Positions 25,131 to 44,824 of a DNA stretch of 64,000 bases are shown piece after piece. This DNA is from a virus. Position 1 is the stretch's first letter. Each line of letters starts with the position of its first letter. Location of the stretch: IMG/VR virus record IMGVR_UViG_3300020182_002648, positions 1 through 64,000 of that record; one strand, 5' to 3'. The notes below the pieces were generated by a model, which was not told where the DNA came from, did not search any database, and saw only the letters and a list, made by a program, of their open reading frames with translations. The position numbers were made by a program, and so were the translations under genes.

Positions 25131-26039
25131 ATGAAGTTAAAATGTTTAGTAACTGGAGGAGCGGGATTTATTGGAAGTCACTGCGTGGATAGACTTAAAG
25201 AACTCGGCCATGACGTTGTCGTAGTTGATAACGAATGTGCACCTGAGAATGACAATTTCTATTGGAGAGATGATACTGATAACCATAAAGTCAATATCAT
25301 GGATTATGATGCATTGGCTCCCTTGTTCAAAGGAGTTGATTACGTGTTTCATTTCGCCGCTGAGAGTAGAATACAACCAAGTATCATAGATCCTAGATAT
25401 GCCATCAATGTTAATGTCGTTGGCACCACGAATGTACTTCAAGCTTCAAGGGAGGCTAACGTCAAAAGGGTTATGTATTCAGGTACAAGTGCTAGTTACG
25501 GTCTAGCTAACACACCACCTTTAACAGAGGATATGCCAACTGATTGTTTGAATCCATACTCAGTCGGTAAAGTAGGTGGTGAAGAGGTGTGTAAGATGTA
25601 CACTCGCTTGTTTGGAGTTGAAACCACACGATTCAGATACTTCAATGTTTACGGAGATCGTAGTCCTACAAAAGGTCAATATGCTCCCGTGATTGGATTG
25701 TTTTTTCAACAAAAGATTGCCAAGAAACCTATGACAGTTGTTGGAGATGGTGAGAGAAGAAGAGATTACACGCATGTGTCAGATATTGTTGAGGCGAACA
25801 TACTAGCAGCAACATGCAAGAACATGCGCGCGGTAGGTGGATTGTTCAATTTAGGAAATGGTGTAAATTATAGTGTGTTAGATTTAGTCAAGATGATAGG
25901 CGGTCCTTACGAGCATATCAAAGACAGATTAGGTGAAGCGGATGCAACGTTAGCCGACAACACTAGAGCTAAAGAAATATTAGGTTGGGACCCCAAGATC
26001 GATCTACCGGAATGGATATACAATAACAAACCTGGGTGA
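25131..26039 (+). CDS. NAD-dependent nucleotide-sugar epimerase/dehydratase (extended SDR)
   Basis: TGGAGFIGSH, VFHFAA, catalytic YSVGK, RYFNVYG, GDG...RDYTHVSD. Confidence 0.95.
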   Translation: MKLKCLVTGGAGFIGSHCVDRLKELGHDVVVVDNECAPENDNFYWRDDTDNHKVNIMDYDALAPLFKGVDYVFHFAAESRIQPSIIDPRYAINVNVVGTTNVLQASREANVKRVMYSGTSASYGLANTPPLTEDMPTDCLNPYSVGKVGGEEVCKMYTRLFGVETTRFRYFNVYGDRSPTKGQYAPVIGLFFQQKIAKKPMTVVGDGERRRDYTHVSDIVEANILAATCKNMRAVGGLFNLGNGVNYSVLDLVKMIGGPYEHIKDRLGEADATLADNTRAKEILGWDPKIDLPEWIYNNKPG

Positions 26040-26377
26040 GTGTAACCACAGGCAAGCTGTTCGATCAAGCTCATCCAGATCTATATAAGAAATGGGTGAT
26101 AGGTGGCTTCGTTCAGGATCATAAATTCAATAGTGATCACTTTGAGTTTAAGTTTCAAGAGGATAAAAAAGGAATGTTAAGAGAGCCAAAGACAGTGATC
26201 AATCCTGATACAAATACTCTCGCTATATTGATTCATGGAGAGTTACGTTTAAACTTTGGCGAAGATGACATAATCTTACGTGATAGGGGTGATTATGTAT
26301 GGTGGTCACCTGATGAACCTCACCTGTTCGAATACATTGAGGATAGTCTCGTAATAACTTTGAGATGGTATAAATAA
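26036..26377 (+). CDS. Cupin-fold protein
   Basis: 'LAILIHGELRLNF....ILRDRGDYVWWSPDEPH' cupin pattern. Confidence 0.65.
   Translation: MSVTTGKLFDQAHPDLYKKWVIGGFVQDHKFNSDHFEFKFQEDKKGMLREPKTVINPDTNTLAILIHGELRLNFGEDDIILRDRGDYVWWSPDEPHLFEYIEDSLVITLRWYK
26369..26376 (+). promoter_or_regulatory. T4-type late promoter within the glycan island
   Basis: Exact TATAAATA, 7 nt before ATG 26384. Confidence 0.7.
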
Positions 26378-26383
26378 TTATAT

Positions 26384-27094
26384 ATGAGTAATAGTACGTA
26401 TATTATGTTTGGTGATAGTCATTCACGTGCTTTCATGAGAACATTTAAAACGAACTGGTTCCGAGCTAGCTCCGCCCGGGGGTTATGTAATAAAGAATCT
26501 AGAACTAAAATCGGACCAAAGATTCACGACATGTTAAGTTCTATCAATGATGATACAAATGTTATTTTTTATTTCGGTAAGGTTGATTTAGATTTTATTA
26601 TAAACTATAAATACAACTCACAGGACTCAAGTCTAGCTGAACTGAGTGAACACATAACAGAAACTGCTGATATGTATATTAACTACATAAAGAGTACTGG
26701 TATGAGAAATATTTTAGTATTTGAACCACCAGTTGTACATTTAAGTGAAGCAGACATGCTAACAACATTACGAATTGACGGTCATAGAAGTAATGCATCT
26801 AGCCATTTAACTGATAAAGATAAAGTAGAGTTACACCGTGTGGATATACATGAGAAAATGATCCCTCGAGAAGATCACATAACGTTATATGATTTGTTTA
26901 ATACTCGACTGAAATCATTATGCTCATCGAACGGCTTCACGTTTGTTGAGATAAATAAATATTTTAAACAACCATCCGGAGAGTATATTGTACCATCTAG
27001 ATATATTAAAGATACAACCGATCATCACCTACATGACAATTGTACTGAATTATTTTTAAAGTCTATGGAGACACTTGGATATATAATTGAGTGA
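26384..27094 (+). CDS. SGNH/GDSL-like hydrolase or O-acyltransferase
   Basis: 'FGDSH', 'FYFGKVD', 'FNTRLKSLC' and a C-terminal D-x-H ('DHHL'). Confidence 0.7.
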   Translation: MSNSTYIMFGDSHSRAFMRTFKTNWFRASSARGLCNKESRTKIGPKIHDMLSSINDDTNVIFYFGKVDLDFIINYKYNSQDSSLAELSEHITETADMYINYIKSTGMRNILVFEPPVVHLSEADMLTTLRIDGHRSNASSHLTDKDKVELHRVDIHEKMIPREDHITLYDLFNTRLKSLCSSNGFTFVEINKYFKQPSGEYIVPSRYIKDTTDHHLHDNCTELFLKSMETLGYIIE

Positions 27095-27810
27095 GGTTAC
27101 AATCATTTATATTCAACTGGCCCGGGCAGTCTGAAAACGTCAATAAAATATATAATGATATTGACGGTAGTGTTGTTATAAATAGTGGTGATACTGATAT
27201 TGTTGACCGCTGTCATAACATAGGAGATCATTCATACTTCAGTGCTCAGTTCAAGAAGATGTTATCACTACATGACGGAACTAGCACAATACTACACATA
27301 CAAGGTGACGCTAGATATTATGATTGGTCTAAACTGATAAAAGACGCTGGTCATTACATGTCAAGATATTCCGCTGGTATATATTACCCTGTTGTAAAAA
27401 ATACATCATGGACTGCCGATAAAATGGCTGTGACAAAATCATCATCTCGTGATGACAATATAAGTTATGTTGCAGATGGTGATGAAACTGTATGGTTTAT
27501 ACATCCAGATGTAATCAATTATTTTAATGATCATAATTTAATAGACATATTACATGATAATAAGTATGGATTTGGATGGGACTTAATACTCTGCTCTATA
27601 TGTCATCTAAAACAAATTCCAGTCATTAGAGATAGCAATCACATAATAGAACACCCTCGAAGCAAAGGATATGACTTTCATGAAGCATGGATAGAATTCA
27701 AGGATGTGATGAACCAACTCCCGGGAGATCTGAAGATAATTGCAGAAATGGTACATAACAACCACAAGATAGATGATCTTAAGAATCATGTTGATAAGTA
27801 TTGTATATGA
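27091..27810 (+). CDS. Putative GT-A glycosyltransferase-like protein
   Basis: 'ILHIQGDA', 'DETVWFI', 'YGFGWD', 'IEHPRSKGY'; glycan-island context. Confidence 0.5.
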   Translation: MRLQSFIFNWPGQSENVNKIYNDIDGSVVINSGDTDIVDRCHNIGDHSYFSAQFKKMLSLHDGTSTILHIQGDARYYDWSKLIKDAGHYMSRYSAGIYYPVVKNTSWTADKMAVTKSSSRDDNISYVADGDETVWFIHPDVINYFNDHNLIDILHDNKYGFGWDLILCSICHLKQIPVIRDSNHIIEHPRSKGYDFHEAWIEFKDVMNQLPGDLKIIAEMVHNNHKIDDLKNHVDKYCI

Positions 27811-28433
27811 ATGTTTCCGTAGTGTGTGCTGTTATGAATCGACCTTACAGGGTGATACCTTGTCTCCGTTCGTGGGTTGATTTGAAAATCGCTAATGATG
27901 TTGTTGTGGTAGACTGGTCATCCGATAAGCAGATCAATGATATAATAGCAGAAGAAGAATTCAATCACAGCAAATTAACTGTAGTCCGAGTAGACAATCA
28001 AGAAAAATTTAACTTCGGTAGAGCGTACAATATAGCAATTGATAGATGTGAGAGTGACATTGTCGTGAAGGTTGATATAGATTATATTTTAACAAATCAA
28101 GTCAAACTAACAGAAGTCGTGGATGGTATCAATTTTGATAAACAATTTCTACACGGAGGTGGTACCGGTGCTCATTACCTGGGCTTCAGTTGTTTTGACA
28201 AGACACATGGTGAGAGGTACAATGAAAATTTTAATGGATATGGATATGAAGATGGTGACCTGTACAAAAGATTTCAGAACATAGGTTTAGAAAAAATGAT
28301 TATACCTGATATACGTGAGATATTTTATCATATACCTCATGACAACAGACTCAGAGTGCAAAATTTTGATGTTAAGGATATAGCGGAATCAACAAAAAAT
28401 AATATGCAAATTGCAGACACCAATGATGAGTGA
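27807..28433 (+). CDS. Glycosyltransferase (GT2 with GT7 C-terminal motif)
   Basis: 'VVVVDWSSD', 'FNFGRAYN', 'KVDID', 'YNENFNGYGYEDGDLYKR'. Confidence 0.85.
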   Translation: MNVSVVCAVMNRPYRVIPCLRSWVDLKIANDVVVVDWSSDKQINDIIAEEEFNHSKLTVVRVDNQEKFNFGRAYNIAIDRCESDIVVKVDIDYILTNQVKLTEVVDGINFDKQFLHGGGTGAHYLGFSCFDKTHGERYNENFNGYGYEDGDLYKRFQNIGLEKMIIPDIREIFYHIPHDNRLRVQNFDVKDIAESTKNNMQIADTNDE

Positions 28434-30243
28434 TATAGAGTCAGAGGTAAAGTGGCGTATGGGTCGGTTGTATAGTGAGAGATTAGAGCTAAGAGACTTA
28501 ATTGATGACAAGCAGGATTTAGAAGCAATGAAAGTGAAGCTATTGTATGAGTTAGATAATATTAGAAACAATAAAGAATTATTAAATGAGAAAAAGAGAT
28601 TATCTGATGAGTTGGAGGAATGTAAGAACAACGAGACATTATTAAAGAGGAAGGATAAATTAACCGATCTTACAAATAATAGAAATAAACTTATACAAGA
28701 ACTTGATAAGCATATAACTAACAAAGTGTTATTAAAGAGAAAGATCGAACTGACCGAATTGAAAAATAATAGAGACCAGCTCATACAAGAACTCAACAAA
28801 CATAAAAATAATAGTACAATATTAAAGAAAAAGAATGAATTGATCAAATCAAGTGAAGAGAGAAATAATCTCATACAAGAACTCAACAAACATAAGAACA
28901 ACGAGACATTATTAAAGAGGAAGGATAAATTAACTACCTCACTAGATGTAATGAAATATAATAAAGCATTACACACTATTGAAGCTAGTAACATAACTTT
29001 AGAACTAAAATCAATACAAGAACAATTATATCCACTAACATTAACAACGAAAATATCTGACCTTGATTACGTTCAAGCTGAACTAAAATCAATACAAGAA
29101 CAACTAACACCATCATCATTAACAACGAAAATATCTGACCTTGATTACGTTCAAACTGAACTAAAATCAATACAAGAACAACTAACACCATCATCATTAA
29201 CAACGAAAATAGCTGACCTTGATTACGTTCAAACTGAACTAAAATCAATACAAGAACAACTAACACCGGCAGAGACTCTGAATAAGCTAACAACTATACA
29301 ACAGGAGATAGATAAAACCAATCATATAAGCGCTGAACTGAAGAGTATCCAAAACCGGTTAGACATGGCTCAAGGAACATATCGACACGTGACCATTCCT
29401 GGGGAATATGCTTTAGAACAACAGAAGACATGTCACGGTAGAGATAGCTACCCTAGAGAAGGCTTTTTATTTGACTTTATGATCAACAACAACATCGACA
29501 CTCAGTTGATAATCGGAGGAGAACGCTCATTTGGATTTAATGGTGTGTTGTTTTCTCAAGCACGAACAATTGGAGATGATCAAGTGATATTATATCCGGA
29601 TCATAACCTGTACCCAACACCAGCTGTTGATTTTCTGTTGAATAAAAATTTTAATCAAACTATTGAGTCTGTACCCTTTGAAGACAAACCTGATATAGCT
29701 GTATGGAGAGGTGGAGACACTGGTGGACAAGGCCCGGTACCAGGACAGGTTGAGTTGGGTCTGGATAAAGTTAAAATAAACAGACAGCATTTTGTTAATA
29801 AATTTAAGAATACAAAGTGTATAGACGCTGCTATAATTGATAGTGATATCGGCCCTAGTACGCCAGAGATCAAAGGAGATCCTAATTGGTTGATGCCACA
29901 TGAACAGGCTAATAACTACAAATATATAATATCACTTGAGGGTAATGATGCTGGTAGTAATCCTAGATGGGTGTTCTCAACACAATGTGTAGTGTTCATG
30001 TCTGACAAACTGACATCCGAACTCACATGGCATTATCATCTGAAACCATGGGTCAATTATATTCCATTCAAACATGATCTTAGTGACCTGGAGAATAAGA
30101 TAAAGTGGGCTAATGATAACATTGATGAATGTAAATCGATAGTCAAACGAGCTAATGAAATGCATGGACTGGTAACTGACGTGGAGCGTGAATATAAAAT
30201 ATTAACATTAATGTTCGATAGATACAAGACAAATATTAAATAA
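28423..30243 (+). CDS. GT90 (CAP10-like) glycosyltransferase with long N-terminal coiled-coil repeats
   Basis: C-terminal 'PFEDKPDIAVWRGGDTG', 'YKYIISLEGND', 'LKPWVNYIPFKHDLSDLENKIKWA' are GT90 signatures; N-terminal ~310 aa is Leu/Lys/Glu-rich repeats. Confidence 0.85.
   Translation: MMSDIESEVKWRMGRLYSERLELRDLIDDKQDLEAMKVKLLYELDNIRNNKELLNEKKRLSDELEECKNNETLLKRKDKLTDLTNNRNKLIQELDKHITNKVLLKRKIELTELKNNRDQLIQELNKHKNNSTILKKKNELIKSSEERNNLIQELNKHKNNETLLKRKDKLTTSLDVMKYNKALHTIEASNITLELKSIQEQLYPLTLTTKISDLDYVQAELKSIQEQLTPSSLTTKISDLDYVQTELKSIQEQLTPSSLTTKIADLDYVQTELKSIQEQLTPAETLNKLTTIQQEIDKTNHISAELKSIQNRLDMAQGTYRHVTIPGEYALEQQKTCHGRDSYPREGFLFDFMINNNIDTQLIIGGERSFGFNGVLFSQARTIGDDQVILYPDHNLYPTPAVDFLLNKNFNQTIESVPFEDKPDIAVWRGGDTGGQGPVPGQVELGLDKVKINRQHFVNKFKNTKCIDAAIIDSDIGPSTPEIKGDPNWLMPHEQANNYKYIISLEGNDAGSNPRWVFSTQCVVFMSDKLTSELTWHYHLKPWVNYIPFKHDLSDLENKIKWANDNIDECKSIVKRANEMHGLVTDVEREYKILTLMFDRYKTNIK
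28620..29270 (+). repeat. Coding repeats: ~31-aa units, then near-exact 78-bp (26-aa) units
   Basis: ELKSIQEQL starts at 29002, 29080, 29158 and 29236; NNETLLKRKDKLT recurs upstream. Confidence 0.9.
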
Positions 30244-30249
30244 TTATAC

Positions 30250-30930
30250 ATGAAATTTAGATTCGTTACCATCACCAATAAAGGATATTACCACTACACG
30301 CAGAACTGTATGGAAAGCTTAAAGGTATCTCCAAATGCTCCTCAGTTAGAATGTTATTTTACCGACAAACTCGGATATGATCAATATAAAGCCGATAATA
30401 ATGTTCACTACATTGGCGACAAGTCTAGTGAGAATGAATGTGAGCATATTGAATTCCGTAAAGGTAATTGGATAAGTCTAGTTGGTAAGAAGATTAACGT
30501 AATCTCAAAAATACTTAAAACTGGTGATTGTGTAATTATTACCGATGGTGATATAGTATACAAGCATCCACAATGGTTCGACTACATCAAGGGAAGAATG
30601 ACCAACCCGGAGGTAGAATTCATGTGTATGAATGATATGTTATCGGATGATGATCATAGCATGCTTTGCTCCGGATTTATGGTTTTGAAACCTACTGTAA
30701 ATAACATGAAATTTTTTAATGATAATATTGATATCAGTGATCTTCCCGGTGATCAAGTGTATGTCAATAATATCAAGAGTGATTTAAAATATGAAATGCT
30801 ACCGCTAGATAAGTTCCCTAACGGTCGGTTGCATCAAGCTGCGAGCGACCCACACACTCTTCATTACAATTTCATGATAGGTAAGACCAAGGAACAAAAA
30901 ATGAAGAAGTCCGGAAACTGGTTGATATAA
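30250..30930 (+). CDS. Nucleotide-diphospho-sugar transferase (GT77-like)
   Basis: 'ITDGDIVY', 'LCSGFM', 'DQVYVN', 'LPLDKFPNG', 'HYNFMIGKTK...MKKSGNW'. Confidence 0.85.
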   Translation: MKFRFVTITNKGYYHYTQNCMESLKVSPNAPQLECYFTDKLGYDQYKADNNVHYIGDKSSENECEHIEFRKGNWISLVGKKINVISKILKTGDCVIITDGDIVYKHPQWFDYIKGRMTNPEVEFMCMNDMLSDDDHSMLCSGFMVLKPTVNNMKFFNDNIDISDLPGDQVYVNNIKSDLKYEMLPLDKFPNGRLHQAASDPHTLHYNFMIGKTKEQKMKKSGNWLI

Positions 30931-30935
30931 TCACA

Positions 30936-31832
30936 ATGAAGGCAATTCTAGTATCCGTAAAATACGATGACTACCTGTCACTCGCATTAAAATTCAACCA
31001 ACATATATTCGAAGAGATAATTGTTGTCACTACTAACACTGACCACGATACAATCAAGGCGTGTGACGAGATTGATAATGTCCATTGTGTTCGTGTTGAT
31101 GATAGTGAAGTAACCAAAGGAGGAGCAGTATTCAACAAGGGTCATCTCTTAAACTTCGCAGTGAAATATCTAGAGGATCAACAATACAAAGGATGGATAT
31201 GTTCGACAGATGGTGATATAATGTTCTCATCTGGATTCGATAAAAAATTTGATGAAATAAAAGAACAAGTAGATTCCTATGGAGTTAATAGTAACCGAAT
31301 TATATTCACAGCTCCTAGGTATTTTATGCCACAGAATATAGAGTGGGTAGAAAGTTTTATGAGTAATCCAGATGTATCGTCAACACGAGATGAATATGGA
31401 AACTATACAGGCGTTAAATATAAAGGACTAACTAGACTCCCAAATGAAGGTAAGGAGAGAATAGGACTAGGGTATTGTCAGATGTATTATATAGATACAG
31501 TCACACGAATCAAACCTCATCAAGCCGCGGAACATCCTTATTATTATCAAGCGAGTGACTTGAAATCAACTATGGGTCTCGACACAAAATTGATCGGAAA
31601 TTTTAAATGCACCGCCACTCGTAAAACAACACCAACTAAACAACTTCTCGATGTTTCAAATGTTATGGACCAGAGTGGTAAGGGTGAAGTTAAGCCTGGC
31701 TTCAATATAGAGCTCACATTTCGAAACGAACATGTATTCTGTTGTCATTATGAATCTGATGACTTTTACTGTCTGCATATTGGTAGATCTTGGATCAACC
31801 AGAAGGGTAGAGTAAGTGCTAGAATTTCATGA
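30936..31832 (+). CDS. Putative GT-A glycosyltransferase
   Basis: 'FNKG', 'STDGDI', 'LGYCQMY', 'HIG'; paralogue of 37050..37793. Confidence 0.7.
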   Translation: MKAILVSVKYDDYLSLALKFNQHIFEEIIVVTTNTDHDTIKACDEIDNVHCVRVDDSEVTKGGAVFNKGHLLNFAVKYLEDQQYKGWICSTDGDIMFSSGFDKKFDEIKEQVDSYGVNSNRIIFTAPRYFMPQNIEWVESFMSNPDVSSTRDEYGNYTGVKYKGLTRLPNEGKERIGLGYCQMYYIDTVTRIKPHQAAEHPYYYQASDLKSTMGLDTKLIGNFKCTATRKTTPTKQLLDVSNVMDQSGKGEVKPGFNIELTFRNEHVFCCHYESDDFYCLHIGRSWINQKGRVSARIS

Positions 31833-32824
31833 ATACCGAGTATATACCAGTACACATACCGTCAGTACCTATATATGATATCTTTAAAGACCCTAGAGGA
31901 AACATACATGTAATATCACCACCTCCGGCTGAAGACAGAGAGATTGACGAAGTGTTAGACATAAGACTTTATAGAGAAGGAACCAGTGATTTAAGGTTTG
32001 AACCTATACGATGTGCACACGGAAACACCCGGAGATATACTCTATATAATCATGACCTACATGTACAGACTACTGAGATTACATTAACTGTGGGAGGTAA
32101 TAAAATTAAGACGAGAATAAACGTACCGCCAAAGTTTGAGAATGAGATAGTGATAACCACGCTATGTAAAGACAGACAAGAGTGGGTCACGACGTGGGCT
32201 AATTATCACTTCGATTTAGGAGTGGATAGGATAATATTATATGATAACTCTAAAAATAATAATCTTAGAGATTCACTAGCACCATTAATATCATCCGGAA
32301 AAGTGTTTTATATAAGATGGTCATATCCCTTCAAAACAAGTTCATTAAAAGCCACTGGAAGAAAACGAAACAGCTTATCATGTCAAACTACTTCTCAAAA
32401 TCATTCGCTAAATCTTTTATCAAACTGTCGGATAGTAGGTAACTTAGATGTGGATGAGTTTATTAATCTACAAAAACATAAAAATGTTATGAGTTTTTTT
32501 GATGAGTATATAAGAAGAGAGGAATATTACATCCGCATCCCCAGCAGGACATTTTTTAATAGCTCAAACAAACCCTACACTGGTAAGAAGTTCTTCAAAA
32601 TATTCGAGTGTAACAGGACTACAGAGACACATAATGGAAAGCTATTTATACACCCAAAATCAATACCCGTAATTTCTGTACATCTACTGACTGACAACAA
32701 TGTGATCACCGAGGTGAATCCTATCACTGCTTACTTCAATCACTACATCTATCTCTCTAATACTAACATATCTAGACGAACACGCACTGATACAACAACC
32801 GATAACTCAATACTAAATATATAA
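31829..32824 (+). CDS. Glycosyltransferase family 92 (DUF23)-like
   Basis: 'WANYHFDLGVDRIILYDNS', 'DVDEFI', 'SVH', 'NHY'. Confidence 0.8.
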   Translation: MNTEYIPVHIPSVPIYDIFKDPRGNIHVISPPPAEDREIDEVLDIRLYREGTSDLRFEPIRCAHGNTRRYTLYNHDLHVQTTEITLTVGGNKIKTRINVPPKFENEIVITTLCKDRQEWVTTWANYHFDLGVDRIILYDNSKNNNLRDSLAPLISSGKVFYIRWSYPFKTSSLKATGRKRNSLSCQTTSQNHSLNLLSNCRIVGNLDVDEFINLQKHKNVMSFFDEYIRREEYYIRIPSRTFFNSSNKPYTGKKFFKIFECNRTTETHNGKLFIHPKSIPVISVHLLTDNNVITEVNPITAYFNHYIYLSNTNISRRTRTDTTTDNSILNI

Positions 32825-32829: not shown

Positions 32830-33561
32830 ATGAACATCAATGAAATAGAAAAATCTCTCCGGGATAACACTCGCCACGAATACAGACTTGGTGATTATAT
32901 CAAACAAATGATGTCTGGGGTATCTAATAAAAATGAAGAACTCAGACCACAATTACGTTCTCTGCGAGATAAACATAACGGAACAATGGGAGATGATCTA
33001 CTATCATACGTACAGTCAAAAAATATAAAAGGAACAAAGAATGTTCGGCAAGCTATCTTAAATTTTTTTAGAAATGCAGCCAAGTCAATAGCTGACCCGC
33101 CATACATGACAATACATCTACGACTAGGGGATGTGCTTGACCCCATCGGTGGAATTAAATCACGAGGGGAAGTTCATGGGTATTTAACACCTCTGAGTAT
33201 ATATAGTGATATGATTCAAGACTTAAAGAAACTCAATCCAGACCATCACATAGAGATCCAAACCGGTATTCATAAGTTTGGTGCTACTGCGACTGCAAAG
33301 TATCTATATGAGTTGAATGAACTCCTTGATAATAACGGTTTAAAACCAACTGTCAATATCACAGATCCAGATACTGCGTTTCTCCGGTTGATCTCATCCA
33401 AAACATTGATATACTGCAAGGGTGGATATTCACAGATAGCAGCAGTAATTTGTCAGGAGATGGGAGGCGATGTGTTGTATGCTGAGGATCTTGACAAGCG
33501 TAACCACTTCCCATATGCTGGGGACATCAGTATATTTGATTGCCCTCACTTGTATAAATAA
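32830..33561 (+). CDS. Putative fucosyltransferase-like protein (GT11/GT23-type motif)
   Basis: 'IHLRLGD' GDP-fucose-binding motif, 'YLTPLSIY', 'DPDTAF..L.....LI...GGYS'. Confidence 0.65.
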   Translation: MNINEIEKSLRDNTRHEYRLGDYIKQMMSGVSNKNEELRPQLRSLRDKHNGTMGDDLLSYVQSKNIKGTKNVRQAILNFFRNAAKSIADPPYMTIHLRLGDVLDPIGGIKSRGEVHGYLTPLSIYSDMIQDLKKLNPDHHIEIQTGIHKFGATATAKYLYELNELLDNNGLKPTVNITDPDTAFLRLISSKTLIYCKGGYSQIAAVICQEMGGDVLYAEDLDKRNHFPYAGDISIFDCPHLYK

Positions 33562-37053: not shown

Positions 37054-37793
37054 AATTTGTAGGTATAACAGTTTGTGTTAATTATGCACCTATTTTGAGA
37101 TTAGCCTTACAAGAAACAAGCCAAAGACTAGATCGCATTATCGTTGTAACCAAGAAAGATGATATTGACACAATAAAGGTTTGTGAGGGATACAATAATG
37201 TGGATACAGTCTTCTTTGATTTTAGCGTTGATGAGAGGTGGTTTGAGACACACATGAAGCGATTTAAAAATGGGGAGATGAACAATCCGCCTGATATGAG
37301 AAAGCAATATTGGTCTAAGCGTTTATCTGATGCTAATGTCAAGGGATTTAATAAAGGTGGAGGGTTGCGTTTAGGTCAGCAACATGTAGTAAAAAACTAT
37401 CCAGGATCTGTACAAATCATTTTAGATTGTGATATAGTTCTCCCACCTGAATTCAAAACCGCGACGACTAGCATGGATTATATTAATGATGTTTTATATG
37501 TACCTAACGAGCGTCGTGATTACACATCATATACATTATACAAACAGCAAAAAACATTTAAGAACTACTCCACCGCTGGATGGGGATATTTTCAAATGTA
37601 CAGACCGTCAATAGAATCTAACAGAGTGTTTTATGATGACTGGCCAGATGCAGCGAAGACTGATGTTTGGTTCCGTAACGATATATTAAAGGGTGATTTC
37701 AAAAAAAAGATAAAACTCAATACACATGTAGATCACTTAGGACAGGAAGGTGGCTCAATACATTTAACTAAATACAACTTCGACTTTAACTGA
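37050..37793 (+). CDS. Putative GT-A glycosyltransferase
   Basis: 'ITVCVNY', 'FNKG', 'LDCDIVLP', 'GYFQMY', 'HLG'; ATGA overlap at 37050. Confidence 0.75.
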   Translation: MKFVGITVCVNYAPILRLALQETSQRLDRIIVVTKKDDIDTIKVCEGYNNVDTVFFDFSVDERWFETHMKRFKNGEMNNPPDMRKQYWSKRLSDANVKGFNKGGGLRLGQQHVVKNYPGSVQIILDCDIVLPPEFKTATTSMDYINDVLYVPNERRDYTSYTLYKQQKTFKNYSTAGWGYFQMYRPSIESNRVFYDDWPDAAKTDVWFRNDILKGDFKKKIKLNTHVDHLGQEGGSIHLTKYNFDFN

Positions 37794-37794: not shown

Positions 37795-38790
37795 ATGATA
37801 GTATCACACAAACATAAATTTATATTCATTAAGACACACAAGACGTCAACACAGACGTTTATGAAGTTTATCAAACCACATCTAGGGACAGATGATGTTA
37901 TGGCAGGTGATTCATCTAGTGACGTCAATGAGGATACGAAACTCAATGTAGATAAGAAATTTGAATCCACCGGCAAGAGTGCTCACGAGTATGTTGAAGT
38001 TTACGGAAACCATCTCCCGTGGTTTATGATCAAGGAAATAGTAGGTGATGATATATGGAGCAATTATACAAAGATCACTATTGAGAGAGATCCTTACGAT
38101 AGACTAGTATCACTATTTCATTTCCTTAATAATATTCTCATAAAACCCGGTCTATTCCAGCCCAGCCCGGGTTATCGTTCTCAATTGAAAGGTCCAGAGA
38201 TTAAAGACATGCTACAGAACAGTCTACTTGATCTATATCCAGAAGAGATACGAACCTATTTCGAGGAGCTTACACTCATGCAACTATCCTCACCGGTTAT
38301 GAATCTCATGGATCATGATACGTATGGTCCGATTGGAGTCGAAAAAGAGAGATCATTATATAAGAACACCGCGCGTGATTTAAATCTCAGAATATATGAA
38401 GTCGATAATAGCCCGTTGATCATCAATAACAAGCTCGGACCTTTTCCTTATCTAAACACTTCTGATATATGCATTCGATTAGAACCTTTTCAGAAACATC
38501 AAGCTAGTGAAGGTCAATGTAGATTTCTCAACTATGGATATTACTACGATGGTGATCGATTGCAGGTCGACGAAGTTATAGATTTTAAGGATGTGGGTAA
38601 CAATATAGGTGATACGTTTCAAAAATACGGAATCAATATTAAATGTGATGAGAGTTTATATAATGACAACAGCCAAAACACACACTACAGATCAACTACA
38701 TCCAGTTATAGTACTGATTGGTGGTATGAAGGCCTTAAGGGTTTCATGATCAAGGAATTAATTAATGAGAAACTCATTACGCGCACCTAA
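37795..38790 (+). CDS. Sulfotransferase family 2-like
   Basis: 'MIVSHKHKFIFIKTHKTSTQT' and 'ERDPYDRLVS'. Confidence 0.8.
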   Translation: MIVSHKHKFIFIKTHKTSTQTFMKFIKPHLGTDDVMAGDSSSDVNEDTKLNVDKKFESTGKSAHEYVEVYGNHLPWFMIKEIVGDDIWSNYTKITIERDPYDRLVSLFHFLNNILIKPGLFQPSPGYRSQLKGPEIKDMLQNSLLDLYPEEIRTYFEELTLMQLSSPVMNLMDHDTYGPIGVEKERSLYKNTARDLNLRIYEVDNSPLIINNKLGPFPYLNTSDICIRLEPFQKHQASEGQCRFLNYGYYYDGDRLQVDEVIDFKDVGNNIGDTFQKYGINIKCDESLYNDNSQNTHYRSTTSSYSTDWWYEGLKGFMIKELINEKLITRT

Positions 38791-38795
38791 TTACA

Positions 38796-38803
38796 TATAA
38801 ATA
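38796..38803 (+). promoter_or_regulatory. T4-type late promoter
   Basis: Exact TATAAATA 9 nt before ATG 38813; heads the run of genes through ugd-glf-fcl-gmd. Confidence 0.7.
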
Positions 38804-38812
38804 TATGTATAT

Positions 38813-40651
38813 ATGGAAGAAGAGATGATTGTCAATTTATGCACCTTTATGGGACGAAAGAATAATGTTAAGATATTACTTGTATACGTGGAAGAAGCGC
38901 TCAAGATAAATGCTATTGATAATTATTATATGATAGATATGACTCGTAATCATAAGGATCACGAATATATATTTAGCGAACAACAACGACTCAATGAATT
39001 ATATCCAGAGCGAGTCCACGTTGTGAATAGGGAGATCCGGAGGAAACAGTTAGACGATAACACGGCTATGGACACAATCGGTAGTTGGGCACCATTCTAT
39101 GAGTTCTGTAGTCAATTTAGTGACAATGATGTAATTATAAAGTGTGATGATGACACTACATACTTTGACGTAGAGACTATTAGAGCTGCAGCAGAGGTAA
39201 GATTTAAAAACAAACACCCGTTCCTGATGCATGGTAATACTATTAATAATGGTATATGTGCTTTTCATCAGCAACGCAAAGGGATATGGACGTTTGAAGG
39301 TAATGATGTACTAGACAATTACCCTACAAGTGGACTAACAGGTCCCTTGTTTTCTCACCCGGAAATTGCATGCGGGTGTCATGAACAGTTCACACGAGAC
39401 TTAATAGCAGATGAGAGTAATATTAGTAAATATGCCTTAAACTCAAATCCATACTTCACAGCAAGAGTGAGTATTAATATGATATTCATGTTGGGAAGTG
39501 ATAGAGACATTATCAGCAAGATTGACACGCAAGATGAGTATGTTAGTAGCAGTAAGATAGGACAACAAACAGACCGCCCTAACATGTTGATTGGTGATTT
39601 TACGTGCGCTCATCACACATACGGAGTTCAAGAACCAGTAATGGAGGAGTTAGGTACATACAAAATGTACAAGGAGTTGGCGGATAAATACTACAGTAAC
39701 GACACAGTACGTACTAACAAGAGTATCACCCAACCAGAAGGACAATCACTGACACTCAAGTCTGATGATATATATTTGGCTAGATACTGGAGTGGTGAAA
39801 ATAGTATAACTATCAAGAACAACAGGACTGATAAATATATCAATTTAGATTGGGTCAAGACAGAGAGAGTTAAGTTTATCGAGGATAAACCCGGGCAGAA
39901 AGAACGAGTAGGAACAGGAGTGTACTGGTATAAGGCAGAGTTGTCAGCTAGTGACAAGCCAATGGTATTTAATCTAGATGATAAAGAGAAAGGAAACCTA
40001 CAAATACAGGATTGCACAGAGATATTTAAAACATCTCAACCAGGTAATAAGGCTGAACGGTTCATGACATTTCCTGTTAAGAAGTGGTTCCAACAGAACT
40101 ATAAAAAACAATACGTCAAGATCAATAACATAGGTACAGATGAAGCACAGATAGAGACTCCTCATCACCCTGGATTCAATTTAGTTGCAGATGATCGTAA
40201 TCCTGACAAGACTTTATACTTCTTTACAAACGGTGGAGAAGATACATGGACCGTAGAGGATCTGAGCAATACAAATAATCTAATCGTACCTATTTCAATT
40301 GATCGTGGTAATCAGGATGAGTGTGAGAATGACCCTACTACCGCCCGGGTTGTTAATGATGACAGTTTACCGGAGTGTAGGAATTTTAGAGAATTCTACT
40401 GGATGGTTAATGGGTATATTTGGGAAATGGTACCTCAAGGAGATAATGAATGTCATGTAAAGTTGATAGCAGATGATCTAGATGATTTGTATCTCTCCGG
40501 AGAAGCTTCCGGTAAAGTGAGGTTGAGTGCCAATAAGGATCTCTGGAAGTTAAGCACCGATAAGTTTTTAGTCCACAACTCGACAAAATTAAAGTTATCT
40601 ATATCACCCACTGGAGTTGAGATTAACTTAACTGGAACTAAATTATCGTAA
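38813..40651 (+). CDS. Putative GT-A glycosyltransferase with C-terminal beta-rich domain
   Basis: 'FMGRK', DxD-type 'IIKCDDD', 'GNTINNG', 'RVSINMI'; C-terminal half is beta-rich with spaced Trp residues. Confidence 0.55.
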   Translation: MEEEMIVNLCTFMGRKNNVKILLVYVEEALKINAIDNYYMIDMTRNHKDHEYIFSEQQRLNELYPERVHVVNREIRRKQLDDNTAMDTIGSWAPFYEFCSQFSDNDVIIKCDDDTTYFDVETIRAAAEVRFKNKHPFLMHGNTINNGICAFHQQRKGIWTFEGNDVLDNYPTSGLTGPLFSHPEIACGCHEQFTRDLIADESNISKYALNSNPYFTARVSINMIFMLGSDRDIISKIDTQDEYVSSSKIGQQTDRPNMLIGDFTCAHHTYGVQEPVMEELGTYKMYKELADKYYSNDTVRTNKSITQPEGQSLTLKSDDIYLARYWSGENSITIKNNRTDKYINLDWVKTERVKFIEDKPGQKERVGTGVYWYKAELSASDKPMVFNLDDKEKGNLQIQDCTEIFKTSQPGNKAERFMTFPVKKWFQQNYKKQYVKINNIGTDEAQIETPHHPGFNLVADDRNPDKTLYFFTNGGEDTWTVEDLSNTNNLIVPISIDRGNQDECENDPTTARVVNDDSLPECRNFREFYWMVNGYIWEMVPQGDNECHVKLIADDLDDLYLSGEASGKVRLSANKDLWKLSTDKFLVHNSTKLKLSISPTGVEINLTGTKLS

Positions 40652-41481
40652 TGAAAGTCGGAGTTATTGGAGCAGGATTCGTTGGAAACGCGATGAGTCA
40701 ATTAAGCCCAGGAGTGGATATAATCGTATGGGACACTGACGAGAGCAAGAGGGTACCAGTTGACATAACATTCGAAGATTTTGTTAAACAGTCTGAAATA
40801 GTCTTTATAGCAGTACCTACACCGATGGATAAAGATGGTAGATGTCATACTGATATCGTTGAGAGTGTAGTTAGCGACGTACGTAGGATTGATAATGAAC
40901 AGCACATAGTAATAAGATCAACAGTACCTCCTGGTACATGTGCTCGATTAGGTGTTAGTTTCATGCCAGAGTTCTTGACAGAGAGATATTGGAAGACTGA
41001 TTTTATACGAACAACAAAGTGGATTATCGGTACAAATGATAATATACTATTCGAATTGATGACAACCATGTTCAAACTAGCGAAAGATCGAGGATGTATC
41101 GATAGCTGTGTGACTGAACAATACACACCTAGTGAAGCTGAGATGATGAAGTATACCGCTAATTGTTTTCTAGCGACCAAGATAAGCTTCTTCAATGAAG
41201 TTAGCGAGTTATGTGACACAATTGGTATTGATTATAATAATATCATCAAATTCTGTGGTGGTGATCCTCGAATTGGTAACAACCACACCCGCGTGCCTGG
41301 TCACGACGGAAAGAGAGGATATGGAGGTACATGCTTTCCAAAGGATATGAACGCATTAGCGCATGAGTTTGAAGCGAACGGTTTAGAGTCATATATAATA
41401 AAAGCATCAATCGAACGAAATGAACATCATGACCGGCCTGAACGCGATTGGAAGTCGGATAGTGGTAGAGCAGTAATTTAA
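40651..41481 (+). CDS. ugd: UDP-glucose/GDP-mannose 6-dehydrogenase, short form lacking the C-terminal domain
   Basis: GAGFVG, AVPTP, RSTVPPGT, PEFL, catalytic 'GYGGTCFPKD'. Confidence 0.9.
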   Translation: MKVGVIGAGFVGNAMSQLSPGVDIIVWDTDESKRVPVDITFEDFVKQSEIVFIAVPTPMDKDGRCHTDIVESVVSDVRRIDNEQHIVIRSTVPPGTCARLGVSFMPEFLTERYWKTDFIRTTKWIIGTNDNILFELMTTMFKLAKDRGCIDSCVTEQYTPSEAEMMKYTANCFLATKISFFNEVSELCDTIGIDYNNIIKFCGGDPRIGNNHTRVPGHDGKRGYGGTCFPKDMNALAHEFEANGLESYIIKASIERNEHHDRPERDWKSDSGRAVI

Positions 41482-41483
41482 TA

Positions 41484-42500
41484 ATGAAGGTAAATATATT
41501 TGGATGCGGGATGAGCGGCACAGTCGCGGCGATCTTATTTAAAGAACAAGGACATGATGTTGAGATATTTGAGACTAGGTCTCATGTTGCTGGCAATTGT
41601 TTTGATAAAAAGAATGAGGATGGTTGCACAGTACATGAGTATGGTTCGCATATCTTCCATACCAACGATAAAGAGGTATGGGACTTTTTAAACCGGTACA
41701 CAAAATTTAACGACTATCAGCACCGTGTCAGAGCGAACACCAAGGAAGGATTATTGAGCATTCCATTCAGTAAAAAGACAGAACAAGAACTCGGACGTGA
41801 TCTGTCACCTAAAGAGATACAAGAGTTGTTATTCCGTGATTATTCCGAACGTCATTGGGGCATACCATGGGAGGAATTACCCAAGAGTATAAGCGGCAGA
41901 GTACCTAACAAACGTGACAATTTCGACGACCGATACTTCACTGACACATATCAAGGTATACCAGAGAAAGGATATACTACCATGTTTAATAATATGTTAG
42001 ATGGTATCAAGGTTAACGTTGGTGTAGATCGTGATTTACGCAAACGTATCAAAGGGGACCTTACAGTTTGGACCGGAAAGATATCTGAGTATTTCGACTT
42101 AGCATACGGTCATCTCCCTTATCGTTCCCTTAGATTTGAACACACACGCGTAAAACGAGACCCGATGTACACATGGGACAAAGGATCAGTTATTAACGAA
42201 TGTAACACCAAGCCTTTCAACCGTACTATGGACAACAGTGTGTATCTCAAGGAGGATGTGACTCACACTATTCATACACGTGATCATCCAGAGGAATATC
42301 AACCAGGTGTCAATGATCCAATTTACCCAAAGACATTCGGAGAAGGTCCAGAGGTATATAAGAAATATTTACAAGCCGCCGAAGCAGATAAGAATACTAT
42401 ATTCTTAGGCCGATTAGCCACATACAGATACTTGGATATGTGGATGGCAGTAAAACAAGTTATAGCTAAACTTGAAACTAGTGATAAATTAAAACGATGA
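41484..42500 (+). CDS. glf: UDP-galactopyranose mutase
   Basis: FAD motif GCGMSG, 'HEYGSHIFHT', 'YQGIPEKGYT', 'LPYRSLRF', 'GRLATYRYLDM'. Confidence 0.95.
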   Translation: MKVNIFGCGMSGTVAAILFKEQGHDVEIFETRSHVAGNCFDKKNEDGCTVHEYGSHIFHTNDKEVWDFLNRYTKFNDYQHRVRANTKEGLLSIPFSKKTEQELGRDLSPKEIQELLFRDYSERHWGIPWEELPKSISGRVPNKRDNFDDRYFTDTYQGIPEKGYTTMFNNMLDGIKVNVGVDRDLRKRIKGDLTVWTGKISEYFDLAYGHLPYRSLRFEHTRVKRDPMYTWDKGSVINECNTKPFNRTMDNSVYLKEDVTHTIHTRDHPEEYQPGVNDPIYPKTFGEGPEVYKKYLQAAEADKNTIFLGRLATYRYLDMWMAVKQVIAKLETSDKLKR

Positions 42501-43423
42501 AATTGTTAATAACAGGTGGTACTGGTTTGGTAGGAACCGGAATTAAATCAATCGCAAGTGAATTTCCAGAGCTTGATATATCTTATATGTCTTCGAAGGA
42601 TTGTAACTTGCTTGATTACGATCAAGTGTTGGAATATTTCTGGAACGAAGAACCAGAATGTATTATTCACTTGGCTGCAAATGTTGGTGGGTTGTACAAG
42701 AACATGAACCAAAAAGTGGAGATGTTTGATGATAATATTCAAATGAATCTCAACGTGATAAAAGCTGCATTCTCAAATGATATCAAGAACTTGATAGGTA
42801 CTTTATCAACATGCATCTTTCCTGACAACACAACATATCCTATCAACGAGACCATGCTTCATGATGGAGCACCACACACATCAAATGACGCATATGCGTA
42901 TGCAAAAAGAATGATCAAGGTTCAATGTGACGCATATAGCGCTCAGCATGATGTGAATTATTCGTGCATAATACCTACGAACATATACGGAGAAGGTGAC
43001 AATTTCTCATTAGAGGATGGACATGTGATACCCGCATTGATCCACAAATGCTTTAACGCTGTTAAAAATGGTACTGATTTTGAAGTGTATGGTACAGGTA
43101 AGCCGTTGCGTCAGTTTATATACTCAAAGGACCTAGGTAGATTGATACTAAAATCAGTATACAAACTAATGCAAGAAAGTATAATACTGGCACCTCGTGA
43201 GGAAGTCGCGATTGGTGATGTGGCTCGTTACATCGCTAGAGCGTTTGACTACGAAGACCGTATGATATTCAATGATAGCTTTAGTGATGGTCAATACAAG
43301 AAGACAGCTGATAACTCCAAACTAATGGAGTTGTTCCCGGATTTTGAATTTATGAAAATCGAGGAAGGTATAGCTGAGACCGTTAAGTATTTCAAACATG
43401 AGTACCCAAATTTAAGACTATGA
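42497..43423 (+). CDS. fcl: GDP-L-fucose synthase
   Basis: TGGTGLVG, HLAANVGG, LSTCIFP, YAYAKR, PTNIYG.DNF, HVIPALIHK, GTGKPLRQFIYS. Confidence 0.96.
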   Translation: MKLLITGGTGLVGTGIKSIASEFPELDISYMSSKDCNLLDYDQVLEYFWNEEPECIIHLAANVGGLYKNMNQKVEMFDDNIQMNLNVIKAAFSNDIKNLIGTLSTCIFPDNTTYPINETMLHDGAPHTSNDAYAYAKRMIKVQCDAYSAQHDVNYSCIIPTNIYGEGDNFSLEDGHVIPALIHKCFNAVKNGTDFEVYGTGKPLRQFIYSKDLGRLILKSVYKLMQESIILAPREEVAIGDVARYIARAFDYEDRMIFNDSFSDGQYKKTADNSKLMELFPDFEFMKIEEGIAETVKYFKHEYPNLRL

Positions 43424-43773
43424 ATAACAACACAGATGAATCTATCCGCCCATGGGGTAACTACGAGATCTTACTAGATACAGACTACTGTAAGGTTAAG
43501 AGAATTTATGTAAAGCCTGGTCAACGATTGAGTTACCAGTACCATCACAAGAGACAAGAAGCATGGACTGTGGTTAGTGGTGTGGCACGTATAACAATCG
43601 ACGACGAGACTAATGACTACAAACCAGGCGAGACTGTGCTGATTCCATTAGGAGCAAAGCATCGGATGGCCAATCCAGAAACTGATGAGATGATGATACT
43701 TGTTGAGGTACAGACAGGTACGTATTTTGGTGAGGATGATATTGTCCGTGTGCAGGACGATTACAACAGATAA
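43420..43773 (+). CDS. Mannose-6-phosphate isomerase type II, stand-alone C-terminal cupin
   Basis: 'RPWGNY', '[23 protein letters not shown]', '[18 protein letters not shown]'. Confidence 0.92.
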
Positions 43774-43777
43774 TTTT

Positions 43778-44824
43778 ATGAAAATAGCACTTATAACAGG
43801 AGTCAATGGACAAGACGGCTCTTATCTAGCAGAATTATTATTAGATAAGGGTTATGATGTGTGGGGAGTAGCAAGACGCGCATCAGATATAAACACACAA
43901 CGCATAGAACATCTTTACTCGAACAAGAAATTGTTTCTCAGATACGGTGACATGACTGATGGTATCAATCTTGTCAACATATTGTATGAAATAAAAACTA
44001 CATATCCAGATATGAACCGGTTAGAGATATACAATCTAGCTGCTATGAGCCACGTCAAGGTGAGTTTTGACATGCCTGAGTATACAGCGAACGCTGACGG
44101 TACTGGTGTGCTAAGATTGTTAGAGGCTGTGAGGTCTACCGGACTGATGGATGTCACAAGATTTTATCAAGCAGCTACATCAGAACTATACGGACTGGTT
44201 CAAGAGGTACCTCAAAAAGAAACCACGCCATTTTATCCTAGATCTCCTTATGGTGTTGCTAAACTGTATGGATATTGGATAACCAAAAATTACAGAGAGT
44301 CATACGACATGTTCGCCGCTAATGGTATTTTATTCAATCATGAGAGTCCCAGAAGAGGTCCAACATTTGTGACTCGTAAGGTCACTAGAGGGTTGAACAT
44401 GATATTGACTGGTGAGCGTGATAAGTTAGTGATGGGTAATATTGATGCCAAGCGAGACTGGGGGCATGCTAAGGATTATGTTGAAGGCATGTGGCGTATA
44501 TTACAAGCTGACAAACCAGATGATTATGTGCTGTCAACTAATGAATTTCATTCAGTTAGAGAGTTTATCGAGAAAAGCTTCTCTATGAGAGGTTTTGACA
44601 TTCGATGGAAAGGCACTGGAGTAGATGAGATCGGGTATGATTATAATAACGGTAGAGAGTTGATACATATCTCAGATAAATACTTTCGACCAGCTGAAGT
44701 TGAAGAACTGTTAGGAGACTCAACAAAAGCCAGAACAGAACTAGGTTGGGAGCCTCAATATTCATTTGATCAACTAGTAAAAGAGATGGTCGATCATGAT
44801 TGCCCACCGAATAATACTGATTAA
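43778..44824 (+). CDS. gmd: GDP-mannose 4,6-dehydratase
   Basis: [52 protein letters not shown]. Likely start is ATG 43778. Confidence 0.97.

Follow-up and report, generated by a model that had tools for sequence, protein, structure and literature searches.

Introduction

Glycan synthesis encoded by viruses has been described in several settings. Among the mycobacteriophages, Che8 and its relatives are reported to glycosylate their own virion proteins (PMC10527164, as cited in PMC12619734 and PMC12801897). In the giant viruses, GDP-mannose 4,6-dehydratase (GMD), fucose synthase, and soluble transferases encoded by the virus decorate capsids and fibrils, as exemplified by the Vp54 glycans of chlorovirus PBCV-1 and the fibril clusters of Megavirinae (PMC9614988, PMC10117803). 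Among cyanophages, S-SCSM1 (ORF113-135), S-SCSM2R, and P-SSM2 carry clusters labeled as lipopolysaccharide (LPS) or cell-wall synthesis and modification (PMC9602691, PMC12801897), and comparative genomics of jumbo phages reads such clusters as capsule or O-antigen modification systems (PMC7824862). Here, we analyzed a block of glycan genes located between positions 25131 and 44824 of a viral DNA stretch of 64 kb, hereafter the window, which comprises the first part of the 146,809-bp linear IMG/VR contig IMGVR_UViG_3300020182_002648 (CheckV completeness 65%). The original prediction for this block, made from the letters of the DNA, had proposed a late-expressed system of soluble enzymes that builds a sulfated and fucosylated glycan directly on virion proteins.

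The analysis confirmed the gene island itself, with reservations for the genes called "ugd" and "SGNH" and for two or three of the "about 11" transferases. As to its role, we tentatively favor, with a confidence that stays just below even, the reading that the block is a late-transcribed cytoplasmic pathway glycosylating proteins of the phage particle, most likely the flanking Ser/Thr-rich fibre or whisker proteins. The mechanism originally proposed is plausible and modestly favored, and unproven.

Results

Layout, Solubility, and Genomic Setting of the Block

Between 25131 and 44824, 22 open reading frames (ORFs) were found on the + strand, with distances of -23 to +22 nt between neighbors, in agreement with the tightly packed, contiguous, and co-oriented array described originally. 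Two gaps of 22 nt coincide with TATAAATA boxes at 33553 and 38796. Kyte-Doolittle hydropathy in 19-residue windows did not exceed 1.40 in any of the 22 ORFs, which bore out the claim of soluble enzymes without membrane anchors. A Pfam scan of the same ORFs likewise identified no family of initiating phosphoglycosyl transferases, flippases or ABC exporters, polymerases, or ligases, as expected from the prediction that flippase, polymerase, and lipid-carrier genes are lacking. Nor were export or lipid-carrier functions found among the hydropathy-flagged proteins scanned elsewhere on the 65%-complete contig, which were a subtilase, the beta subunit of ribonucleotide reductase (RNR), a DUF protein, and a fourth protein without match. 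The block thus lacks the hallmarks of Wzx/Wzy- or ABC-dependent O-antigen and capsule loci.

The major capsid protein (MCP, 52437-53894) was matched to the T4 gp23 family (PHROG 138, 1e-88); among deposited phages, its nearest counterparts are those of cyanomyoviruses, at only about 34% identity. No nucleotide match to the block or to positions 1-11400 was obtained by Megablast against 50,697 phage records. Marine metagenomes of 11 studies contain near-identical DNA. The source is therefore an uncultured, divergent, marine T4-like myovirus. A gp15-like sheath-stabilizer gene lies upstream of the block, and beyond its right flank follow, in this order, the genes for the neck/adaptor protein, the head-closure protein, the prohead protease, a probable scaffold protein, and the MCP. 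All these genes are on the + strand, and the block therefore lies inside the morphogenesis operon, more precisely between the gp15-like gene and the neck gene with fibre genes on both flanks.

These observations bear on a serious rival explanation, namely that the block remodels the host envelope, with a lipid-linked glycan of the host (O-antigen, capsule, or S-layer) being altered and then exported by host machinery; the effect would be a masking of receptors that protects from superinfection, from grazers, or from progeny being lost on cell debris. Bacterial O-antigen transferases are soluble likewise, and the gene content overlaps that of the S-SCSM1, S-SCSM2R, and P-SSM2 clusters in a cupin-type mannose-6-phosphate isomerase (MPI), GMD, fucose synthase, fucosyltransferases, and many further transferases (PMC9602691, PMC12801897, PMC7824862). 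Against it stands the absence of an initiating phosphoglycosyl transferase, flippase, polymerase, ligase, and exporter from the block and from the membrane proteins tested on the contig. Moreover, the block is placed in a virion operon with a late-type box, whereas that of S-SCSM1 has nrdAB/tRNAs on one side and hli/petF on the other; late synthesis, too, would leave little time for export. Overall, we consider envelope remodeling less likely than glycosylation of the virion.

Late-Type Boxes

The original prediction had placed late-type boxes in the block, and these were found where it had located them, with exact TATAAATA at 26369, 33553, and 38796 and variants at 25116 and 30235. An overall enrichment of TATAAATA in the window was rejected (12 found versus 9.4 expected). 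Its placement, on the other hand, was strongly non-random: ATAARTA precedes 26 of 187 start codons by 4-13 nt, versus 16 of 3350 internal ATGs (0.5%). Similarly, the contig contains 65 NATAAATA sites, of which 16 are followed by a start codon on the same strand at a distance of 13-20 nt.

The virion genes marked by ATAARTA include those for fibre proteins at 5278, 11493, 20250, and 44877 and for head proteins at 50615 and 51467, with the protease and scaffold genes among those marked. In the block, the genes at 25131, 26384, 33584, 35231, and 38813 carry it, and weaker variants precede those at 30250 and 32830. The box also occurs before an adenosine-5'-phosphosulfate (APS)-kinase-like gene and before the fibre gene at the head of a second sugar cassette. 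In a related locus, L039, it is kept before a sulfotransferase gene, the homolog of the 38813 gene, and the neck, protease, and scaffold genes; in another, L004, it is kept before the 38813 homolog. Co-regulation of the block with the virion genes is a well-supported reading of these motif placements. Early (sigma-70-like) promoters and terminators within the block were rejected as candidates, both being at chance level.

Timing proved a weaker discriminator than the original prediction had assumed. Transferases that glycosylate the capsid of PBCV-1 and other chloroviruses are expressed early (PMC9614988), and early or middle expression would therefore not be decisive against virion glycosylation. 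Queries with T4 gp55 and gp45 gave no match, which is uninformative on a contig of 65% completeness; gp33 was not searched for.

Two further features of the start regions were observed. The ATAARTA box ends 4-13 nt before the ATG with no Shine-Dalgarno sequence between (for example at 5264, 11479, 25116, 26369, 38796, 44857, and 51450), which would leave late mRNAs with almost no leader. In promoters of the early type (TTGnnn-N17-TATAAT), such as those at 571 and 3433, the distance from the promoter end to an ATG is about 6 nt.

Donor Synthesis and Tailoring Genes

For comparison, 24 loci were retrieved by means of the neck gene, and further lineages (L034, L035, and L038) were included. Genes are denoted below by their start coordinates; their enzyme identities rest on Pfam and PDB sequence matches unless stated, and represent predicted functions. 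The genes other than transferases are as follows.

25131-26039, + strand, GalE-like UDP-glucose 4-epimerase-type short-chain dehydrogenase/reductase (SDR) (Pfam Epimerase 1.5e-55; PDB 7ys8, GalE, 7e-45); AATAAATA at 25116
26036-26377, + strand, small cupin-like protein of 113 aa (weak Cupin_2 match, 0.035; weak paralogy to the phosphomannose isomerase cupin)
26384-27094, + strand, possible SGNH esterase or acyl-tailoring enzyme, weak (OSK 0.0028; SGNH 0.049; N-terminal GDSHS motif); TATAAATA at 26369, 15 nt before the ATG
27091-27810, + strand, protein of 239 aa without Pfam or NCBIfam match
33584-34222, + strand, carbohydrate sulfotransferase of the type using 3'-phosphoadenosine-5'-phosphosulfate (PAPS) (Sulfotransfer_2 2.3e-15, full length; 61% identical L034 homolog); TATAAATA at 33553 and TAAGTA 6 nt before the ATG
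37795-38790, + strand, second sulfotransferase with an added C-terminal part (Sulfotransfer_2 8.8e-7, residues 1-109 only)
40651-41481, + strand, UDP-glucose dehydrogenase (UGDH)-like protein of 276 aa (UDPG_MGDP_dh central domain 7.9e-28, N domain 8.3e-18; no C domain)
41484-42500, + strand, UDP-galactopyranose mutase Glf (GLF 5.2e-45; 70-83% identical homologs in relatives)
42497-43423, + strand, GDP-L-fucose synthase, eukaryote-like (PDB 6aqy and human 4e5y 1e-83 versus E. coli 1bws 4e-41)
43420-43773, + strand, cupin-only type II phosphomannose isomerase (PMI) domain of 117 aa (MannoseP_isomer 1.3e-32; PMI C-terminal domain)
43700-44824, + strand, GDP-mannose 4,6-dehydratase (GDP_Man_Dehyd 3.8e-139, alignment from ORF residue 31; likely start 43778)

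Accordingly, the trio proposed for GDP-fucose (PMI, gmd, and fcl) stood at 43420, 43700, and 42497, the first as a cupin-only form, and the assignments of glf (41484) and of the epimerase (25131, by its match to 7ys8) held as well; the 25131 SDR probably supplies UDP-Gal for Glf. The monofunctional cupin form of 43420 is the same as that of the MPI of cyanophage S-SCSM1 (PMC9602691). The fucose synthase is nearest to eukaryotic enzymes (human and Naegleria) and only 30-32% identical to the cyanophage copies, which suggests an origin different from that of cyanophage fcl.

The gene called ugd was upheld in part, in that the N-terminal and central UGDH domains are present at 40651 while the C-terminal one is absent. 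The protein aligns with residues ~50-300 of UGDH enzymes of 450 aa and lacks their UDP-sugar-binding domain. The exact 276-aa form was also found in L004 (5022-5849), L036 (1795-2622), and L039 (10732-11559). Such retention in relatives points to a putatively functional protein, although not certainly to a UDP-glucose dehydrogenase; it may need a partner or catalyze a different reaction.

Both predicted sulfotransferases were recovered, the match of the second being to its N-terminal part. Homologs of 37795, 39-68% identical, adjoin homologs of 38813 in L034, L035, L038, and L039. The APS-kinase-like gene at contig positions 129042-129866 could feed sulfation. The SGNH protein proposed for the block was weakly backed by the GDSHS motif of 26384 and E-values of 0.003-0.05. 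Homologs of the cupin-like 26036, 50-54% identical, occur in L034 (102-437), L035 (901-1230), and L038 (3688-4011), all of which bear the island. In two of these three lineages, the cupin-like homolog directly adjoins a sulfotransferase gene.

Glycosyltransferases

The glycosyltransferase (GT) genes of the block are as follows.

27801-28433, + strand, GT-A transferase of GT2/GT7 type (Glyco_transf_7C 6.7e-7; Glycos_transf_2 1e-4)
28411-30243, + strand, GT90 (CAP10/POGLUT-type) on a helical repeat stalk of ~330 aa (Glyco_transf_90 2.2e-14, residues 393-584)
30250-30930, + strand, GT77-type nucleotide-diphospho-sugar transferase (Nucleotid_trans 1.3e-11); variant box ATTAAATA at 30235
30936-31832, + strand, probable GT-A transferase, weak, paralog of 37026 (N-terminal 44% identity to 37026)
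31829-32824, + strand, GT92 transferase, presence strain-dependent (Glyco_transf_92 9e-17)
32830-33561, + strand, compact fucosyltransferase-superfamily protein (HxRxGD motif; fold match)
34225-35244, + strand, GT10 alpha-1,3/4-fucosyltransferase-type (Glyco_transf_10 1.1e-17; 60% identical L034 homolog)
35231-36004, + strand, GT34-like GT-A transferase (ESM Atlas features 0.96 and structure TM 0.84 to the Glyco_transf_34 cluster; 67% identical L034 homolog)
36001-37053, + strand, GT-B transferase, the most conserved core gene (Glyco_trans_1_2 2.7e-18; 73-78% identical homologs in L034 and L035)
37026-37793, + strand, probable GT-A transferase, weak (likely start 37050; homologs of 247-253 aa without Pfam match)
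38813-40651, + strand, 612-aa phage-specific GT-A transferase with two C-terminal beta-trefoil lectin domains (fold; PHROG 4447); TATAAATA at 38796

The original count of about 11 transferases thus separated into seven firm calls (27801, 28411, 30250, 31829, 34225, 36001, and 38813), two moderate ones (35231 and 32830), and two that are only weak (30936 and 37026). As for the weak pair, the family profile of 30936 and 37026 gave only sub-threshold B4GalT1 matches (E 0.07) over an FNK...DxD motif, and hhalign detected no relation of this family to that of 38813. The units of the GT90 stalk are repeats of 30 aa and 26 aa, which correspond to tandem DNA repeats of 90 nt and 78 nt. Searches for related loci with the 723-aa protein or GT10 as sole query found nothing.

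The gene taken originally for a GT11-like enzyme, 32830, was placed in the fucosyltransferase superfamily (GT11/23/37/65/68) at large, without assignment to GT11 itself. Its HxRxGD motif (H96, R98, G100, and D101) is conserved across 29 distant homologs, one of which (1/29) has an O-FucT match. In an exhaustive structure comparison of its model (predicted local distance difference test, pLDDT, 83) with 48,161 chains, only three reached Z >=8, all of them POFUT2 or POFUT1 (9.0-9.2); FUT8 (Z 7.8) and NodZ (7.2) were the next folds.

T-even phages and other viruses glycosylate their DNA. Hypermodification of the phage DNA with glycans by the present block is nevertheless highly improbable, as none of the 22 ORFs matches the Pfam families of T4-type DNA glucosyltransferases, and the block is placed in the virion operon, whereas DNA-modification genes are normally early. 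To our knowledge, GT10, GT77, GT90, GT92, the FucT superfamily, and Sulfotransfer_2 have no precedent of action on DNA. In favor of this explanation, virus-encoded transferases are reported to build glycans on DNA (Pyle et al. 2024, cited in PMC12619734).

The GT-A/Lectin Protein 38813

The 38813 protein showed no sequence match in Pfam, NCBIfam, or PDB, and the profile of its family found nothing in PDB either; its sole match at the sequence level was that of the N-terminal part to PHROG 4447, "glycosyltransferase" (2.7e-10). In metagenomes, the family is represented by at least 111 clusters, and its CDDDT motif is invariant. An AlphaFold2 model built from a deep alignment of 29 homologs had a pLDDT of 92.9. 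Residues 1-294 of the model form a GT-A domain (Z 14.2 to COLGALT1 and 13.0 to GalNAc-T2), and residues 328-612 form two beta-trefoil lectin domains (Z 12.8 to HA33).

In its N-terminal GT-A domain followed by ricin-type beta-trefoils, 38813 resembles the polypeptide GalNAc-transferases (GT27), with full-length Foldseek matches to GalNAc-T1 and T2. It differs from them in having a DDD motif rather than DxH, two trefoils rather than one, and no family membership at the sequence level; furthermore, COLGALT1, chondroitin polymerase, and RmlT score equally well as the GalNAc-transferases. On the basis of this predicted fold, 38813 is a candidate for an initiating or glycan-guided transferase.

A pattern-based scan of 185,579 prokaryote species (one genome each) found no relatives of 38813, which is weak negative evidence, and neither 38813 nor 36001 had a homolog in the 50,697 deposited phage records (INPHARED). 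Homologs of 38813 occur on metagenomic contigs of up to 224 kb, and the family is abundant in marine viral contigs. Its absence from the prokaryote genomes scanned counts against remodeling of the host envelope.

Flanking Fibre-Type Genes and the Putative Acceptor

The genes that flank the block, with the anchor used for synteny, are as follows.

11493-20237, + strand, giant fibre-type protein of 2914 aa on the left flank of the island region, candidate acceptor (paralog of 44877); AATAAATA 14 nt before the ATG
44877-48980, + strand, fibre-type paralog of 1367 aa on the right flank, candidate acceptor (paralogy 8e-101; immediately preceding the neck gene); CATAAATA 20 nt before the ATG
48973-50106, + strand, neck / head-tail adaptor gene (PHROG 211, 1.5e-15), the synteny anchor with which the 24 related loci were retrieved

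The location of the block between two paralogous fibre genes, as claimed originally, was borne out by the similarity of the 2914-aa and 1367-aa proteins. Both contain arrays of a 14-aa, Trp-containing, Ser/Thr-rich motif, of which the 11493 protein has 39 copies, 35 at a spacing of 14 aa. Their S+T contents are 21% (11493) and 25% (44877), with a contig mean of 14.6% and 11.6% in the MCP. A PDB sequence search with the 1367-aa protein found nothing. In L003 and L004, the neck gene is likewise preceded by homologs of 44877, with identities of 42-71%.

The insertion site between the gp15-like and neck genes is the position of wac/fibritin in T4. The giant repeat proteins could accordingly form whiskers of the neck instead of fibres of the tail.

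Two small Ser/Thr-rich proteins, 23892 and 24443, are encoded directly upstream of the block; no role was assigned to them by the searches.

A target other than a virion protein or the envelope, such as a non-structural cytoplasmic protein of the phage or host, a free or loosely attached sulfated oligo- or polysaccharide released at lysis (for instance a decoy or an adhesive matrix), or a small metabolite, is improbable. It would be compatible with the facts that no one acceptor emerged from the analysis, that the lectin domains of 38813, as predicted from the fold, show only glycan binding, and that the neighboring 23892 and 24443 have no known role. However, the block includes no polymerizing synthase or exporter, and its repeated occurrence beside neck and fibre genes, as seen in several relatives, would be left unexplained.

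Relatives and Strain Variation

In L018-L021, which are distant relatives, only about 2 kb separate the gp15-like gene from the neck gene, and the whole 5.3-49 kb stretch, with fibres and block, is therefore accessory. At 43.7 kb (5278-48980), the sequence between these two genes is a very large accessory insertion.

Glycan genes recur at this site in other relatives. L003 (97% neck identity) shows the end of fcl, PMI, gmd, and a fibre gene upstream of the neck gene, and in L004 a fibre gene separates the array 38813-glf-fcl-gmd-ugd from the neck gene. In L039, four sulfotransferases, a GT77-like gene, and 38813-fcl-gmd-ugd-glf abut the neck gene with no intervening fibre gene. L036 has the order 38813-ugd-glf-neck, and a Sulfotransfer_2 gene (4771-5334, 1.4e-10) between its neck and head-closure genes. 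A core of the sulfotransferase gene, GT10, 35231, 36001, 37026, 37795, 38813, and glf was found complete in L034 and in part in L035, with identities of 45-78%. The marine L038 (a contig of 116 kb) carries two tandem 38813 paralogs (9974-13629) with about six sulfotransferase homologs around them. The island is thus conserved in kind and variable in content.

Variation was also seen between strains. The GT92 gene is missing from a strain of about 95% identity that was seen in four libraries of one study, two of DNA and two of RNA. In contigs of the four runs, 31870 is connected to 32817, so that 946 nt are skipped, and the two sides of the joint share 6 nt. The same strain differs in the number of GT90-stalk repeats (joints 28557>28861 and 29111>29306). 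In gene 25131, 30 of the 34 listed strain differences fall on third codon positions; this one gene examined is under purifying selection. Such variable presence between relatives, including the loss of the GT92 gene from one strain, is the pattern of surface-antigen loci and speaks for remodeling of the host envelope.

Further Glycan Islands of the Contig

Beyond the window, the contig holds a second sugar cassette at ~93-113 kb, headed by a fibre gene, and a sulfation island at ~122-130 kb, headed by the APS-kinase-like gene. All three glycan islands have a late-type box at their head, and two of the three adjoin fibre genes. A subtilase gene (Peptidase_S8, 6e-48) at contig positions 119784-121001 (L042 15784-16998), whose product has a Pro/Glu-rich repeat and hydrophobic segments, adjoins the gene for the small subunit of RNR and shortly precedes the sulfation island.

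Discussion

Proposed Pathway and Its Target

For the favored reading, glycosylation of the virion, we infer the following scheme of product and acceptor. Hexose phosphates and UDP-Glc or GDP-Man of the host would be converted to GDP-L-fucose via the PMI cupin, GMD, and fucose synthase, and UDP-Gal and UDP-Galf (galactofuranose) would come from the GalE-like enzyme and Glf, with uronic acid possibly provided by the truncated UGDH-like protein. About 9-11 soluble transferases (38813, GT90, GT77-like, GT92, GT10, FucT-superfamily, GT34-like, GT-B, GT2/7, and the two weak GT7-like ones) would then build a branched oligosaccharide on protein. The two PAPS-dependent sulfotransferases, and perhaps the SGNH esterase, would tailor the chain, with PAPS being supplied with the help of the APS-kinase-like gene.

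The observed gene content, solubility, operon packing, shared late-type box, and neck/fibre synteny are consistent with such a scheme. In particular, block, fibre, and head genes have the box in common, and relatives repeatedly carry genes for sulfotransferases and sugar synthesis next to their neck-head operon or even within it. The conserved 38813 transferase was phage-restricted in the searches made and has the GT-A/lectin layout of initiators of protein O-glycosylation, and the folds nearest to 32830 are protein O-fucosyltransferases. The interpretation of the block as a virion-glycan system was accordingly supported in part, namely as regards soluble enzymes, position in the virion operon, the shared box, and the lack of lipid-carrier genes; its argument from absent membrane genes is weakened, as this absence is also compatible with a host target.

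Several points weigh against this reading. Bacterial soluble transferases, including those of GT10 and GT11 type, also build lipid-linked O-antigen, and the lack of membrane genes therefore leaves room for a host target. The presence/absence variation fits an arms race at the host surface equally well. The late timing is deduced from the motif only; contigs from RNA libraries (X18 and X20, one study) cover nearly the whole block of the ~95% identical strain, although carry-over of DNA is possible and timing is not given by them. The matches of 38813 and 32830 to protein-modifying enzymes lead those to other transferases by only 1-2 Z units. As to the acceptor, the 14-aa fibre repeats were rejected as specific to the block: in G001 and G002 (~70% neck identity), the gap is filled by ~25 kb of fibre-type genes, including one for a 4369-aa protein with the same 14-aa repeats, and no homologs of block genes occur within 49-59 kb (59 kb in the case of G001), so the repeats are not specifically linked to the block. 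Finally, searches of the deposited phages found no cultured relative, and a glycan on particles of this lineage remains a prediction.

In its most specific form, the favored reading would be that the phage, while in the bacterial cytoplasm, provides its fibre or whisker proteins with a eukaryote-style sulfated glycan coat containing fucose and Galf. This coat would be started or guided by 38813 as an analog of the mucin-type polypeptide GalNAc-transferases and would diversify through gain and loss of genes between strains, which we regard as possible though doubtful. If true, a phage would for the first time be known to have a pathway to sulfated glycoproteins, and a widespread trait of marine phage particles would have gone unrecognized; our full-text searches turned up phage-encoded glycan sulfation only as an item mentioned in passing in lists of auxiliary metabolic genes. 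With the glycan on the particle, marine phages would carry a variable and negatively charged sugar coat that could affect adsorption, stickiness to particles or mucus, grazing, decay, and antigenicity, and sulfated protein glycosylation would be possible in the bacterial cytoplasm with phage enzymes alone. Whatever the target, the island offers compact soluble fucosyl-, galactofuranosyl-, and sulfotransferases together with a new GT-A/lectin family (>100 metagenomic clusters).

Comparison with Known Systems

Virion glycosylation systems have soluble transferases of their own, with or without donor synthesis; the block comprises 11 transferase calls and six donor genes. The likeness to the mycobacteriophages would consist in soluble phage transferases that act on the phage's own structural proteins in the bacterial cytoplasm. 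The mycobacteriophages employ few transferases (two in the Cheoctovirus phage Maravista, PMC11256854), in contrast to the 22 genes of the present block. Their acceptors are reportedly the C-terminal tails of capsid and tail-tube proteins, whereas here the MCP is not Ser/Thr-rich and the fibres are. The sources consulted mention no donor synthesis, fucose, Galf, or sulfate.

With the giant viruses, the block shares GMD, GDP-fucose synthase, and multiple soluble cytoplasmic transferases in clade-specific clusters, and its fucose synthase is of the eukaryotic type. These viruses differ in infecting eukaryotes and in the early expression of the PBCV-1 transferases, and sulfation is not mentioned in the review on them.

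The cyanophage clusters resemble the block in belonging to T4-like phages, in forming a co-oriented array with cupin-only MPI, GMD, fucose synthase, and fucosyltransferases, and in varying between phages. Orthology was not apparent, given the low identity of the fucose synthases and the lack of deposited-phage matches for 38813 and 36001, and the S-SCSM1 region inspected lists no sulfotransferase, Glf, GT90, GT92, or GT-A/lectin protein, all of which are present here. S-SCSM1 has its cluster among nrdAB, tRNAs, and hli/petF; the position of the present block in the virion operon, unlike that of the cyanophage clusters, gives concrete grounds for testing afresh the prevailing view of phage glycan genes as "host LPS" genes. 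To the systems known so far, this case adds a quantified late-type box in common with virion genes, a series of neck-gene synteny, gene loss at the strain level, and the fold of the 38813 family.

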